NCBI GenBank assembly: GCA_045602545.1
Contig: JAZSBR010000033.1
Coordinates: forward strand, 14,645-78,644
From: Alphaproteobacteria bacterium
GTDB lineage: Bacteria; Pseudomonadota; Alphaproteobacteria; RF32; CAG-239
DNA length: 64,000 bases
Direction: 5' to 3'
In this document: piece by piece, positions 52,841 through 63,977 of the stretch
How the letters are laid out: every line of letters begins with the position of its first letter
Numbering within the stretch: position 1 is the first letter of the stretch
Made by a program: the position numbers and the translations under genes
The notes under the pieces: model-generated
The model's database searches: none
What the model was told of the DNA's origin: nothing
The model's input: only the letters and a program-made list of their open reading frames with translations

Positions 52841-55800
52841 TTAAAATTCCCCATATGATGAGCAATAAGCCGGAGCGCTGTTATTTATTCTTTCAGCCAG
52901 CTCTTTTTCACCCTCATCTATTTTACTTGCCAATTCACGAACGGCAGCATCGGTTTTTTGAACTTTTATTTCTTCTGCCACTTCATCTACCGTTTCAGGT
53001 CCGTTAATTTGAATAAGTTCCTCGGAATCCAGTTCAAGAAGAGAAATTTGCTTGAGCAAATCTTCCTTACGTTTAACCATTTCGTCAGATGTCAGATTAA
53101 GACCTTCATTTTCAGCCAAAATTGCTTTTGCCTGACGAATATTATCTTCTTTTCTGGCGTTTAAGAGATTCTCTGCTTGCTTATAATAATCCTCCTTACT
53201 CAAATCAAAATCATTACGATCAAAATCATATCCCATTTCCGAGAATGACTTGTAAAGAGAATTTACAATAACCATATCAGTCACATTCGCACTATATATT
53301 TTATTTTTGATTTTTTCTTTTGCTTCAAGCGTAGTGCGTTCCAAATCAACCTTCATCAGATAATCCCCGAATTGGCTGTTCTGAGGCAATACGCGTTTAT
53401 AGAAATAATATTTTTCATTTATATCATTTTCGTCTTTAATTGAAGCCAGATATTTCAACGCATACAAAAGTGAATCGTTTAAAGATAAGTATGAAACTTT
53501 CTTTTGTAAAAACATAGTGCCGAATTGATCAGTCAAAGGCAAGCCGTCAGCACCAATTCTGTTAACAAGAATTTCCTTATATTCCAAAATTTGGCCCAGC
53601 TCACTGGTAGGATTTGATAGAACAACAGCTTGTGATCCGACACTGATTTCGTTCTTTCCGGTTGGTGCTTCGCGATCAAAATATTTACCGCCATCTTTTA
53701 CAATGGTTTGGCACTGAGGAATGTTATCATACCCGCCAGCATTACCCAGCGCATAAGTAGCATTCTTTGCATTTTGCACGGTAATAACTTCATCACCTGA
53801 TTTACACGGATAAATTCCGGAATTTTGCACCTCAACATGATCATCGACAGGATCGCCTAAAAATTTTCTGAAATCAATCTCTTTTTGCACAAAAGGACGA
53901 TGAGAGAGAACAATTTTCCAAATTTCAGGCATTTCAACTCCGCTGTCAAGCAAGCTTCGGTTCAGAAGCAAAATTTTGGCATCATCTGTTGAAATATCCG
54001 CTTCACCGACACCTATTATCTGCATATCGAAATCAAGCTTAAAATCTTGTGTTGCGTAATAATCAACATAGTTCATATCTTCAAGTCCGAAAGAAAATAC
54101 TTCTCTCATCGGCGCTGAAGAAAATTCAACAGCAGCTTTCGGAGCAGCAAAATCTTTTTTCTGCTCGATTAACCCGACAAAGTATTCTTTATCAGGCTCA
54201 TAACAGGTTGTTTCATCGCAGATGTCGGAGAATACACCCGTAATCATTGAGGCATACTTGGTCAACAACGTTTTTGCGGTATCGTCAAGTTGCAATTCGG
54301 CAACAATATCCTCAACCTTAGGATCTGTAATTTTTTTCATCATTTCAGAGTGTATTGCCACAACTTTAGGATTGTTTTCGGTATAATATATACTCTTATC
54401 TTTTTTCAACTTATCAATTTCTGTATATGCTTTTTCAACTTGTTTAACCGCATAATCTCTGATAAGTTTCATCACCATTTCGGCTTCTTGCAGAACAATA
54501 AACGAACTCTTTGCTTCCGAAACAATCTTTGCCGTATTACTGATTTCAGTTGAGCGTACAATATCCTCAATATCCGTTTTATATTTGCTTTCAGCATTGA
54601 AATATGCCAAAACATATTCATGTTTCAAAGCAATGATTTCACGCTCAACGGCAATAATTGCATTAAGAACCTCATCGCGCGAAGAGCTTGTCGTATTTAA
54701 CTGATTGATAGCCACATCTCTTGCGCTTTCCGCAGACGCTTCTTTGTTTTTTTGCTCATCTATATTTTCATTAAAGACCGCTTCGTTTGTTTTATGCGGA
54801 TTTTCCGGATTTTGATAATCCTTATCCATTTCAGCGCCCCCTTCTGCCACGGCATTATAGCCTTCGGCATAGTTTATAACAGCATCTTGCTTGGTTATTT
54901 CTTCATGAGATTCGGCAACTTTGATGTTTATATCTTCAAGTTGCTTATAAAGTGCAAATCTTTTCTTATCAAGATCTTCAAGCTTTTCATGATAATCGCT
55001 CAAAATCTGATTAAGTTTTTCATCTTCCTCAAGCAACAGTTTATCTACCAACGCAACTTTTTCCTGTGAATCATCCGTAATTTGTCCTAACAAAGCATTT
55101 ATTGCCTCTGCCACTTCTTTACGTATCGCCTCCACACTTTTTGCGATCATGCCTGATGCATCTCTTTGCGCCTCATATTCATAAGTTTCATTTATCTTCA
55201 AACCTAAATTCAACATATTTTCAAACATTGGCGCATTTTCCAAATAAGCTTCAATATTTTCATACTTGCCGTCAATATATTGATCATAGAAATTGATTTG
55301 ATCATTCCAAAGTTTAAACGGCACCGTTTCAACTCCGAATTTGCTTTTTCCGCCGGTTCCGTTAGTGTCTTTATTGATTTCATCGTTAGCCAAAACGCCG
55401 ATTGAATAAGGCAATCTTGACAATACGCGCATTTTTTCTTTATACGTATCCATCAAAATATCACCGTTTTCAATTTGCTTTTTCAAATATTCTGCCGAAT
55501 AAGCACCTGTGCCCGGTCCGATATTTCTATCTTGCGGAGCATCCGTACTTGCAGCGGCAACAACATAATTTTCACCATCAGGAACATCGTCCGACAATTC
55601 ATCTTTTGCATTCAAATACATATTGATGAGCCAGCCCGACATACCGCCTATTTCATTATATGCGGTCGGCGCAAGTTTATAGCACTTTTGCGCATAATTA
55701 TCCGGACACAAAACATCATACAACCCTTCACTTTCAGCCGTATCAGTGGCACTCTTTGACGGCGAATATTTGCAGACATATCCATCACCTTCATCAAGCA

Positions 55801-56983
55801 CGCAATTATCAAGCCATACTTTTTCGCCGTTATTCGGATATCTTTTGTTAAGATAATTCACAACGCATTGTTCGGAAGCCTGCAAATTTTCAACCGCTTT
55901 GGCATGCATTTTTTCCATATTGTGATAGGTATCAAAAAGTCTTTTAAATTCCGGCAGTTGTTGTTTCAGATTATGGCTTTCAAACGCATTTGAAATATGT
56001 TGCTGTGCTTCTTCAAAAACAGCCATTGCTTTTATATCGTCTTGTTTATCGGCAAGCGGAGTTTTTGCTCCGGTTTTATTGTTATCAACAAAATCAAATT
56101 CAGAATCCGGAAGCTTTTCAACAACCAGCGGCTCGTCATCAATTTCTTCTGAGGCATATCCGACCGTATCTTCAATATAATTACTCAATGATGTGGTTTT
56201 GCTTTTTTTATCTGCCGGTTCTTCCGGTTTTACCGAACTTCCGATTGCGCGCACTGCTTCATATTGTGAGCGCATGGCAATCAGATATTCGTTATATTTC
56301 ATAATGGTATCATAGATTTGCGCCACCATCAGCATGTTGCGACGATAACACATTTCATCTTCTGAATCTTCATCTTTTTGGCAGTTATATTCTTCCATCT
56401 CCTGATTTTTACATTCTTCATCATCACCTTCAATCACACATTTTTTAATCAGGTCAAGTTGCGAAATCATAACTTTAAGTTCTTTATCCATTTCTTTTGA
56501 GATGATATAAAGTTCAATGGTTGTATCTTCAACAAACTGTTCTCTCTTTTCCTTATACGAAGCTTGAATTTCTTCATTTTTGGAAGGAACATACAAGAAG
56601 TATTTTTTAAATGAATCTTTAACCGCATTAACATCTTCCACATCAGTTTTAGTCTTTTTGATGACGCGGGTATAAGAAATCGGTTTATTATCATCCTTAT
56701 TTTTCTTCTTTTTTAATTTATTATTAACGAAATCTTTTCCCTTATCAAGAGCATACTTTTTTGCATGAGCTTCAACCTCTCCAAACTTTTGCTTTAAGCC
56801 TTCACGGCTGCTGACAGATTTCACTGTTTCATATGCACTCTTATACATTTGTACTTTTTCAGAGGTACAAGGAGCACATACCTGCGGAGCAATTTCTTCT
56901 AACGGGGTTAAATCTGGATAAGCCGCCTGCGCGTTAAATGAAAACATCATTCCGCAAAAATAAAGAAGTACAAATTTTTTCAT
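52841..56983 (-). CDS. giant secreted hydrophilic protein of unknown function within the T4SS locus
   Basis: 1380 aa; signal peptide MKKFVLLYFCGMMFSFNAQA; no further TM segments; Glu/Lys/Asp-rich with coiled-coil stretches; occupies the position where VirB6 genes are normally found. Confidence 0.4.
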   Translation of the reverse strand: MKKFVLLYFCGMMFSFNAQAAYPDLTPLEEIAPQVCAPCTSEKVQMYKSAYETVKSVSSREGLKQKFGEVEAHAKKYALDKGKDFVNNKLKKKKNKDDNKPISYTRVIKKTKTDVEDVNAVKDSFKKYFLYVPSKNEEIQASYKEKREQFVEDTTIELYIISKEMDKELKVMISQLDLIKKCVIEGDDEECKNQEMEEYNCQKDEDSEDEMCYRRNMLMVAQIYDTIMKYNEYLIAMRSQYEAVRAIGSSVKPEEPADKKSKTTSLSNYIEDTVGYASEEIDDEPLVVEKLPDSEFDFVDNNKTGAKTPLADKQDDIKAMAVFEEAQQHISNAFESHNLKQQLPEFKRLFDTYHNMEKMHAKAVENLQASEQCVVNYLNKRYPNNGEKVWLDNCVLDEGDGYVCKYSPSKSATDTAESEGLYDVLCPDNYAQKCYKLAPTAYNEIGGMSGWLINMYLNAKDELSDDVPDGENYVVAAASTDAPQDRNIGPGTGAYSAEYLKKQIENGDILMDTYKEKMRVLSRLPYSIGVLANDEINKDTNGTGGKSKFGVETVPFKLWNDQINFYDQYIDGKYENIEAYLENAPMFENMLNLGLKINETYEYEAQRDASGMIAKSVEAIRKEVAEAINALLGQITDDSQEKVALVDKLLLEEDEKLNQILSDYHEKLEDLDKKRFALYKQLEDINIKVAESHEEITKQDAVINYAEGYNAVAEGGAEMDKDYQNPENPHKTNEAVFNENIDEQKNKEASAESARDVAINQLNTTSSSRDEVLNAIIAVEREIIALKHEYVLAYFNAESKYKTDIEDIVRSTEISNTAKIVSEAKSSFIVLQEAEMVMKLIRDYAVKQVEKAYTEIDKLKKDKSIYYTENNPKVVAIHSEMMKKITDPKVEDIVAELQLDDTAKTLLTKYASMITGVFSDICDETTCYEPDKEYFVGLIEQKKDFAAPKAAVEFSSAPMREVFSFGLEDMNYVDYYATQDFKLDFDMQIIGVGEADISTDDAKILLLNRSLLDSGVEMPEIWKIVLSHRPFVQKEIDFRKFLGDPVDDHVEVQNSGIYPCKSGDEVITVQNAKNATYALGNAGGYDNIPQCQTIVKDGGKYFDREAPTGKNEISVGSQAVVLSNPTSELGQILEYKEILVNRIGADGLPLTDQFGTMFLQKKVSYLSLNDSLLYALKYLASIKDENDINEKYYFYKRVLPQNSQFGDYLMKVDLERTTLEAKEKIKNKIYSANVTDMVIVNSLYKSFSEMGYDFDRNDFDLSKEDYYKQAENLLNARKEDNIRQAKAILAENEGLNLTSDEMVKRKEDLLKQISLLELDSEELIQINGPETVDEVAEEIKVQKTDAAVRELASKIDEGEKELAERINNSAPAYCSSYGEF

Positions 56984-63696: not shown

Positions 63697-63977
63697 TTAA
63701 GCCTCCTCAATTTTGCCGATAGTTCGCCGACAATTATATCATCCCTTGATGATTGTAAAGCATTATTGGTTAACTGTTGGTAAAAATAAGTATCATGTTT
63801 TGTAATAAGATTTTTTTTCTCATTTATCGCACTATGCAAATATTGTTTTGTTTCTTTCAAAATATCCTGACGTTGCAGTTCTTTGGAATCTCCGCCGGCA
63901 ATTTGTTCAATTTCATCACGGCTCAATTTTTTTGCCAATTCCGGATTTTTTGCATATAGCTCTTCAATTTTTTTCAA
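63693..63977 (-). CDS. small hydrophilic hypothetical protein upstream of virB3 (not VirB2-like)
   Basis: 94 aa; no TM or signal peptide; translationally coupled to virB3. Confidence 0.3.
   Translation of the reverse strand: MKKIEELYAKNPELAKKLSRDEIEQIAGGDSKELQRQDILKETKQYLHSAINEKKNLITKHDTYFYQQLTNNALQSSRDDIIVGELSAKLRRLK

Follow-up and report, generated by a model that had tools for sequence, protein, structure and literature searches.

The 64,000-nucleotide stretch of contig JAZSBR010000033.1 analysed here (the window), from an Alphaproteobacteria bacterium of the RF32 lineage CAG-239, carries a chromosomal P-type (VirB/MPF-T-like) type IV secretion system (T4SS). Between its virB4 and virB8 genes lie five open reading frames (ORFs), which encode secreted proteins of 222, 292, 359, 410 and 1380 aa (p222, p292, p359, p410 and p1380). 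The reading that we favour, with moderate confidence, is that this array consists of diverged VirB5-type proteins of a T4SS that, like Trw, presents variable surface structures of the VirB2/VirB5 type. Judged from profile comparisons, the direct VirB5 counterpart would be a single unit, here split into p222 and p292, and p359 and p410 appear to keep the C-terminal helical module of VirB5. The largest protein, p1380, may be a VirB5-like N-terminal module joined to a ‘payload’ of ∼1100 aa with Cys-rich, helical-hairpin and beta-rich parts.

The T4SS genes form a single tightly packed row on the minus strand (window positions 40377–64000; Table 1), with intergenic gaps of 11–70 nucleotides. The ATPases and the envelope core of a P-type T4SS were found: VirB4, both VirB8 copies, VirB9, VirB10 and VirB11 all scored above the Pfam cut-offs, and a lipoprotein is present. 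The remaining window genes are housekeeping genes (FtsH, PBP1A, RNase E, QueA, AmiC, RuvC/RuvX, RF) and the system is therefore chromosomal. All five ORFs between virB4 and virB8 have a Sec-type signal peptide at the N-terminus, beyond which no hydrophobic segment was seen in any of the five proteins (Kyte–Doolittle scan, window 19, threshold 1.6), and their combined content of Lys, Glu and Asp is 24–35%. Pfam and NCBIfam scans of the five returned coiled-coil noise only and no family match. A preliminary description of this DNA had listed the same minus-strand gene order and protein sizes, which the Pfam and ORF calls bear out. It had also described five secreted, hydrophilic proteins without polytopic topology at the VirB5/VirB6 position of canonical virB operons; the position is as described, and the signal peptides and the hydropathy scan agree with that account of the proteins.

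A VirB4-based scan using one genome per species gave 80 related loci (VirB4 76–97% identical), all of them from uncultured Alphaproteobacteria living in the gut or rumen; the hosts are human, ruminant, horse, rabbit and chicken. Across these relatives the order of the genes between virB4 and virB8 is kept but their sequences are not. Median identities to the window proteins are 24% for p1380, 31% for p410, 32% for p292 and 27% for p359, and only two loci gave a BLAST match to p222. Depending on the locus, 3 to 7 genes lie between virB4 and virB8. In the closest relative locus of the species scan (L002), VirB4 is 97% identical compared to 54% for p1380. At the point where p1380 identity is down to 22%, VirB9 is still 56% identical. 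When the window was compared with a near-identical metagenome contig (L001, 96% nucleotide identity), the ratio of nonsynonymous to synonymous substitution rates (dN/dS) was 0.004 for VirB4 and 0.11–0.31 for the five array genes. The five array genes are real genes under net purifying selection, evolving 25–75 times faster than VirB4.

Similarity of the array proteins to VirB5

In most related loci the mature N-terminus of the first ORF after VirB4 reads [FWLI]P(L)PT[LFMVI]D and is followed by an amphipathic helix. The VirB5 proteins at the same position in the nearest plasmid systems, those of Microvirga and Erythrobacter (the sister plasmids), begin ‘GIPVIDP’ or ‘QVPVLDS’, and the Erythrobacter protein belongs to PF07996. 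At the level of sequence, the first-ORF motif matches the ‘GIPVID’ start of these bona fide VirB5 proteins, and p222 carries a degenerate form of it (SLPTYSIPE). Divergent loci have the first ORF as one unsplit gene of 440–810 aa, compared to two genes in the window sublineage. Short first ORFs of the p222 type align with the N-terminus of the unsplit gene (hhalign probability 95.9%), and ORFs of the p292 type align with its positions 423–579 (probability 98.8%, E 5.5e-17). Because they match opposite ends of the unsplit gene, p222 and p292 are, on these alignments, the two parts of a gene that more distant relatives have in one piece. The five ORFs of the preliminary description therefore stand as ORFs but make up four evolutionary units. 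Its ‘8-Cys C-terminal knot’ does not exist as such: p292 has a conserved domain with a separate, conserved Cys pair (C57/C74) and a 6-Cys module (C245–C285, motif CPDGxY), the module being kept in loci L001–L024.

The VirB5 profile used for comparison was built from 45 sequences (44 homologues of the Erythrobacter protein and the Microvirga one), and each family was compared with it by hhalign after the signal peptides had been stripped. The long first ORF (probability 86%, E 5e-6) and the first-ORF N-terminus (84%, E 8e-6) both matched the N-terminus of VirB5. The p359 family (positions 107–212) matched VirB5 positions 134–243 (88%, E 3e-6), and the C-terminal 215 aa of the p410 family matched positions 137–246 (82%, E 1e-5). 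Lower probabilities were obtained with the p1380 N-terminus (157 sequences; positions 127–241, 64%, E 7e-5) and with the p292 family (positions 161–242, the VirB5 C-terminal module; 38%, E 3.3e-4). Every family match was co-linear with VirB5, and the p1380 N-terminus also matched the p359 family with a probability of 84%. Against a reversed VirB5 profile the probabilities were 0.2–2% (0.2% for p359, 2% for p410). In 25 column shuffles the scores were 11–13 ± 2 with a maximum of 16, compared to 37–53 for the real comparisons (11.9 ± 1.5 against 46 for p359; 11.3 ± 2.0 against 43 for p410).

The same approach showed that the second protein at the ‘VirB6 position’ of the Microvirga and Erythrobacter plasmids, which is hydrophilic and 428 or 453 aa long, is VirB5-like (probabilities 95.6% and 92.8%). 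Because the sister plasmids carry this second, longer VirB5-like protein, several VirB5 paralogues are, as far as the profiles tell, ancestral to this clade. A VirB5 relationship is probable for the first ORF, p359 and p410 and possible for p292 and the p1380 N-terminus; taken as a whole, the profile-level evidence is suggestive but not conclusive. The array had been described earlier as replacing VirB5, and this part of the description no longer fits: at least three of the four gene families (first ORF, p359 and p410) are probably remote VirB5 relatives themselves, with p1380 a weaker match.

The individual proteins differ in what surrounds the putative VirB5-like part. The domain formed by aa 1–217 of p359 is the entire protein (220–260 aa) in divergent loci, and the tail that follows it is K/D/N-rich with 11-aa W repeats. 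In 66 related loci a p410 homologue was present, and its gene immediately precedes the large gene in all cases where the latter is within the fetched DNA. We also noted that p222 (aa 151–209, ∼60283–60459) and p359 (aa 286–345, ∼58285–58464) have a common C-terminal tail, in which 11-aa repeats containing Trp precede GVxxIxxGxxGxDS; among the fetched loci this tail was seen in this sublineage only. The C-terminus of p410 (∼56999–57097) ends in three similar 11-aa KDK..GLY repeats. The shared repeat tails of p222, p359 and p410 suggest module exchange between paralogues.

Several points weigh against the VirB5 reading. Neither PF07996 nor the NCBIfam VirB5/TrbJ models matched, even at E ≤ 1, any of the window proteins, 67 p410-family members or 70 first-ORF members; in the Pfam search of these two families the sole recurring T4SS-flavoured match was DUF4141, in 5 of the 70 first-ORF members. 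Sequence and profile searches of the PDB with the p1380, p410 and p359 families retrieved no TraC, TrwJ, CagL or other T4SS protein. The only targeted structure model, an AlphaFold2 model of p359 aa 1–235, is all-helical with two long C-terminal helices, and its low confidence (predicted local distance difference test score 42) makes it too poor to confirm a VirB5 fold. The hhalign probabilities are 64–88% rather than above 95%, and false profile matches are commoner with helical, compositionally biased proteins; the weakest links are those of p292 (38%) and of p1380 (2–64% depending on the alignment). The localization and function of the array proteins are inferred from their sequences. Finally, VirD4 and VirB6, neither of which was found in the window (see below), may sit at other places in the genome, just as the rvh genes of Rickettsia are scattered.

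Alternatively, the similarity could be spurious, a product of helical low-complexity composition, with the operon holding five unrelated secreted surface or periplasmic proteins. We consider this very improbable. The silence of curated family models and PDB sequence searches speaks for it, as do probabilities below 90% and a first round of hhalign comparisons in which all families seemed ∼95% related, an artefact of aligned signal peptides that was dropped after stripping. However, five separately built profiles match VirB5 co-linearly, more than 10 standard deviations above the shuffles and well above the reversed controls. In addition, the N-terminal PT[LF]D motif can be seen by eye at the VirB5 position in most loci, and the same comparison gives 93–96% for the second protein of the sister plasmids.

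The 1380-aa protein family and the VirB6 position

Beyond its N-terminus p1380 has a Cys-rich region, a long helical hairpin (aa ∼617–900) and a beta-rich domain (aa ∼960–1170). A search of 1.84 billion representative proteins placed its family in 199 clusters at 50% identity, nearly all of them with proteins of 1200–1850 aa, and no Pfam domain was found in five long family members. The p1380 gene is directly upstream of virB8a in every locus with both genes in the fetched DNA, and the most distant relative among the matches listed (22% identity) also lies directly before virB8a. The 1380-aa family is strictly linked to this position of this locus type. In loci L064, L066, L067 and L074 (∼16340–20770) the large gene is split into ORFs of ∼220 aa and ∼1229 aa; a split between a putative VirB5-like N-terminal module of ∼220 aa and the remaining ∼1229 aa fits a modular build of adaptor plus payload.

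The preliminary description had raised the possibility that p1380 is a divergent VirB6 with cryptic transmembrane (TM) helices. This candidate was ruled out: p1380 has no TM helix, its maximum Kyte–Doolittle hydropathy is 1.26, it does not match PF04610, and a structure model of aa 1–1200 contains no hydrophobic helical bundle. Neither VirB6/TrbL (PF04610) nor VirD4 was found within the 64-kb window, where the only polytopic ORF is ComEC; downstream of virB11 there are ruvX, a leucine-rich repeat (LRR) gene and queA, and no VirD4. No polytopic ORF (at least four hydrophobic helices) was found within ±10 kb of VirB4 in the 80 loci, and the T4SS clusters on the sister plasmids (L082 and L083) gave no polytopic VirB6 either. 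As a positive control, a PF04610 VirB6 was picked up at its canonical place in a Paracaedimonas plasmid (L084, VirB4 29% identical). The earlier statement that no VirB6 or VirD4 is visible holds for the window and the 80 loci, and the genome beyond the window lies outside this outcome. Some T4SSs are known to be without VirD4 (PMC12857230). We also noted a 228-aa protein encoded between the two VirB5-like genes of the Microvirga plasmid (L082, 21216–21902), with three hydrophobic helices and no Pfam match. No other membrane protein occupies the VirB6 position in the sister systems; the 228-aa protein has no Erythrobacter counterpart and could be a minimal VirB6 remnant.

The fixed place of p1380, kept before virB8a even at 22% identity, is what might be expected if the array proteins were lineage-specific subunits of the machine itself, forming a periplasmic stalk, a ring or accessories of the outer-membrane core complex (compare CagM/Cag3/CagT and DotF/H/K), with at least one of them taking the VirB6 platform role. 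VirB6 is missing from this cluster and from those of the nearest plasmid T4SSs; the latter otherwise have B2–B11, VirD4 and a MobA/MobL relaxase and thus seem complete for conjugation. Other parts of the window system are enlarged too (the beta-flower repeats of VirB10, the 1263-aa anchored repeat protein and the SPOR-like domain on VirB9), and the VirB6 of R388 is a mostly periplasmic pentamer on which VirB5 docks (PMC12857230). Even so, we judge this explanation unlikely. The core parts are conserved (VirB4 76–100%; VirB9 56% where p1380 is 22%) whereas the array is the fastest-evolving part of the locus. Its gene number varies from 3 to 7, with splits and fusions, which is unusual for stoichiometric core subunits, and all of its proteins have cleavable signal peptides and lack a membrane anchor.

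A related proposal is that the whole clade, meaning the gut and rumen chromosomal systems together with the Microvirga/Erythrobacter-type plasmid T4SSs, works without any VirB6. Soluble VirB5-derived proteins, including the giant of 1200–1850 aa, would then build the periplasmic stalk/pilus platform, and the gut lineage would have a hypervariable surface-display machine. We regard this as unlikely. If true, a VirB6-less clade would go against the prevailing opinion that all T4SSs have kept VirB6 (PMC12857230). Should VirB6 really be lacking, also in the plasmid relatives that look complete, an alternative to the current model of pilus nucleation on a VirB6 platform would be required.

Envelope core, pilin genes and flanking DNA

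Among the annotated collections searched, all core components were closest to the Microvirga and Erythrobacter plasmid T4SSs. VirB8a and VirB8b share 29% identity with each other and each is 27–28% identical to the single Microvirga VirB8 (27% for VirB8a). Because the two copies are about equally similar to the single plasmid protein, they probably arose by duplication within this lineage. Compared with the PDB, both gave weak matches only, with no specific link to Rickettsia RvhB8-II. The VirB7-like lipoprotein is 31–36% identical to the small lipoproteins that the Erythrobacter and Microvirga plasmids encode at the VirB7 position, and shares the PCAC motif with them. VirB9 is 36% identical to Erythrobacter VirB9, and a SPOR-like (peptidoglycan-binding) domain at aa 462–534 (PF05036, E 0.0015, below the cut-off) aligns also with the C-terminus of the Erythrobacter protein. 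VirB10 has a signal-peptide-like N-terminus, beta-flower repeats over ∼1000 aa and a TrbI barrel. The same repeats (beta-flower/YD-type) are found in the 1263-aa TM-anchored protein encoded between virB9 and virB10. The VirB10 proteins of the sister plasmids bear their own TM anchor, whereas that of the window has only the signal-peptide-like N-terminus. The 1263-aa protein and VirB10 could be a split, repeat-expanded VirB10, reminiscent of CagY.

Table 1. Genes of the T4SS row, in window coordinates
Feature	Position	Strand	Remarks
orfX	63693..64000	-	3′ part of a conserved secreted protein of ∼145–162 aa; between VirB2 genes and VirB3
VirB3	63406..63696	-	PF05101 weak, E 0.0026; two hydrophobic helices; 29% identity to Microvirga VirB3
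VirB4 ATPase with N-terminal TM segment	60980..63409	-	PF03135, E 2.8e-17
p222, 222 aa, N-terminal half of split VirB5-like gene	60241..60909	-	signal peptide, coiled coil
p292, 292 aa, C-terminal half of split VirB5-like gene	59350..60228	-	Cys pair and 6-Cys module
p359, 359 aa, VirB5-like	58240..59319	-	conserved domain aa 1–217 and K/D/N-rich tail
p410, 410 aa	56996..58228	-	N-terminal K/E-rich coiled coil, then C-terminal VirB5-like module
p1380, 1380 aa, large secreted Cys-rich protein	52841..56983	-	N-terminal ∼250 aa may be VirB5-like
VirB8a, more divergent VirB8 paralogue	52076..52825	-	PF04335, E 5e-10
VirB7-like lipoprotein, 62 aa	51734..51922	-	LPAM_1 match; lipobox LSAC; motif LSPCAC
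VirB8b	50974..51717	-	PF04335, E 3e-21
VirB9 with C-terminal SPOR-like domain	49352..50962	-	PF03524, E 4e-12
1263-aa beta-flower repeat protein	45555..49346	-	PF21785, E 1.5e-76; N-terminal TM aa 15–41
VirB10	41362..45552	-	PF03743, E 1.2e-29 at aa 1098–1299; PF21785, E 9e-55
VirB11 ATPase	40377..41351	-	PF00437, E 5e-23; 40% identity to Microvirga VirB11

The reading frame of orfX is still open at base 64000, where the gene is cut by the end of the window. Its full-length homologue in L002 (9229–9717) encodes 162 aa with a signal peptide, and 35 positional homologues (145–162 aa) carry the common motif AYLE...AGEQNTNLYRLN. No relation of these 35 proteins to VirB5 was found. As a candidate for VirB2, orfX was ruled out: the protein is hydrophilic and bears no relation to VirB2, and the genuine VirB2 genes are found upstream of it in L002. 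There, three tandem TrbC/VirB2 pilin genes (PF04956, 31–41 bits against a cut-off of 27.9) are directly upstream of orfX, at a place that would fall just past position 64000. The absence of a visible VirB2 in the preliminary description was an artefact of the window edge.

The VirB2 triplet before orfX was seen in L002 (8030–9260), L036 (8409–9572), L044 (8535–9581), L058 (8375–9685) and L069 (8170–9609). The third pilin of more divergent loci carries a fused Gly/Ala/Ser/Asn-rich C-terminal extension of 250–350 aa with a small Cys motif, making it a pilin with its own long appendage. In the relative L085 (a 78.6-kb contig of JGI metagenome 3300028591), whose VirB4 is 74% identical, six ORFs and a 1473-aa protein are encoded between virB4 and virB8, and VirB10 has 1827 aa; no VirB2 or orfX is found upstream, and the pilin genes must sit elsewhere. 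Upstream of the VirB2 genes of L002, on the opposite strand (736–7578), there is a type IVb pilus-like gene set with a TcpQ/PilL-like lipoprotein, a secretin and PilO (by Pfam) and two 527-aa ORFs without assignment. In L080 a probable T2SS-F/PilC-like platform protein is encoded nearby, judged by eye from the sequence.

Other window genes were noted in passing. Terminator-like sites in the T4SS gene row were not commoner than in shuffled sequence. A BspA-type LRR protein (PF13306, 38967–39863, plus strand) is encoded directly downstream of the T4SS, and a second LRR protein (6159–7427, minus strand) weakly matches an LRR adhesin model; LRR proteins such as these two are typical of host-associated bacteria. 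An 854-aa ORF (34939–37503, minus strand), 3 kb from virB11, has no Pfam or NCBIfam match and no signal peptide. With its Gly/Ala-rich hydrophobic central stretch (aa ∼325–520) and Gly-rich repeats, it may be a membrane-inserting effector-like protein. A 251-aa ORF (29982–30737, plus strand) has a weak N-terminal methylation motif of the type IV pilin/pseudopilin kind (PF07963, E 0.002).

Comparison with known systems and biological meaning

The nearest annotated VirB4 proteins are those of Microvirga sp. VF16 (pMVF16-3; 38% identity) and Erythrobacter aureus YH-07 (33%). The identities of the other components encoded on these two plasmids are 38–40% for B11, 31–36% for B9, 32–33% for B10 and 23–28% for B8, compared to 33–38% for B4. 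Like the window, both plasmids have a VirB7 lipoprotein with PCAC, a VirB5-like second protein at the VirB6 site and no polytopic VirB6 in the cluster. Unlike the window, they encode a MobA/MobL relaxase and VirD4, and are presumably conjugative; they have a single VirB2 and a single VirB8, their VirB10 is of normal size and bears its own TM anchor, and they lack the 1380-aa protein. The canonical VirB5 and the second, longer VirB5-like protein are their only two VirB5-type genes, whereas the window array has more.

The window was also described earlier as resembling the rvh system of the Rickettsiales, whose loci carry several virB6 genes where the five array genes sit. The Rickettsia gene order bears out the latter point: islet A reads virB3-virB4a-virB6a-e and islet C reads virB9a-B8a-B7-B8b-B9b-B10-B11-D4 (PMC2653234). 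The window shares the orders virB3-virB4-[five genes] and virB8-virB7-virB8-virB9-virB10-virB11 with rvh (PMC2653234, PMC4676284), its B8-B7-B8 order is that of R. typhi (PMC4676284), and in both systems the two VirB8 paralogues have diverged unequally. However, the hallmarks of rvh are multicopy VirB6 and no VirB5 analogue (PMC11077975), and the window has the reverse pattern, with VirB5-like secreted proteins and no VirB6 in the locus where rvh has five polytopic VirB6 proteins and no VirB5. It holds one VirB4 and one VirB9 copy, with no second virB9 before virB8a and no VirD4 after virB11, and, among the collections searched, its core is nearest to plasmid T4SSs. The likeness thus stands for gene position and for VirB8-VirB7-VirB8 and fails for the hallmarks; on sequence comparison it is positional only.

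The Trw system of Bartonella, a VirB-type T4SS encoded on the chromosome, has several sequence-variable copies of the pilin VirB2 and of VirB5, and its locus lacks VirD4; it is thought to display variable adhesive pili rather than translocate effectors (PMC4676284, PMC12857230). For the system of the window, three VirB2 paralogues are seen in L002, four or five genes are putatively VirB5-like by remote homology, and no VirD4 was found in the window. Trw reportedly amplifies trwJ-trwI-trwH (B5-B6-B7) units and keeps VirB6, as Seubert et al. 2003 are said to have described. Unlike those of Trw, the VirB5-like paralogues of the window range from 222 to 1380 aa and fall below detection by curated models, and the window system has no VirB6 in the locus, a duplicated VirB8 and extra domains on VirB9 and VirB10. 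The Cag T4SS of Helicobacter pylori has many system-specific secreted parts, a repeat-enlarged VirB10 homologue (CagY) and a diverged VirB5-like adhesin (CagL). It differs from the window in having VirD4 (Cag-beta) and a VirB6-like protein (CagW), and no sequence or fold match of the array proteins to any Cag protein was found.

In the Ptl system of Bordetella pertussis, as in the window, proteins with Sec signals are encoded together with a VirD4-less T4SS. Ptl is not known to have a VirB5 and has VirB6 (PtlD). By analogy, the array proteins might be Sec-dependent cargo of a two-step, VirD4-independent export, assembled in the periplasm and then pushed out as a complex or toxin by a VirB2 pseudopilus. 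The cargo of Ptl has been proposed to mimic VirB5 (PMC12857230). The ptx genes lie upstream of the ptl genes and not between B4 and B8, and the array proteins matched none of the known folds of the toxin subunits. We consider export as cargo distinctly improbable for the window system. Toxin-like matches of the array proteins were generic helical hairpins at the level of coiled-coil noise, and no enzymatic or toxin domain was found in six p1380-family members (the window protein and five distant relatives). VirB5-like modules would also favour attachment to a pilus or stalk over free release.

According to the favoured reading, in which the array proteins are VirB5-type components of a Trw-like display system, they would be exported into the periplasm by Sec, and their VirB5-like modules would dock on the T4SS stalk or at the foot of a VirB2 fibre, for which up to three pilin paralogues would supply the subunits. 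The docked proteins would then be carried to the cell surface or the pilus tip, where their variable parts could serve adhesion to, or contact with, host surfaces or other cells, and the fast sequence turnover of the array would reflect surface exposure. Such a model draws on the role of VirB5 at the pilus tip and on the variable VirB2 and VirB5 of Trw (PMC12857230, PMC4676284). Docking on the stalk or tip, surface display, adhesion and a genome-wide lack of VirB6 and VirD4 are what we infer. The earlier suggestion of pilus or adhesin subunits accords with the reading that the evidence favours, and the proteins are lineage-specific.

A literature search for RF32 or CAG-239 in connection with T4SSs found nothing, and to our knowledge the host lineage has no cultured member. 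It is widespread in gut metagenomes of humans, ruminants, horses, rabbits and chickens, with the T4SS present in at least 80 species-level genomes. A core under very strong constraint set against a fast array is a pattern typical of an organelle for contact with a host or with neighbouring cells. The 1380-aa family, with its ∼200 clusters and no known domain, amounts to large protein ‘dark matter’ tied to one machine. If the VirB5 reading is true, the system would be a second independent case, besides the Trw system of Bartonella, of a T4SS repurposed for variable surface display. With many VirB5 proteins and no VirB6, it would also mirror rvh, in which VirB6 is the multiplied protein and VirB5 the missing one.

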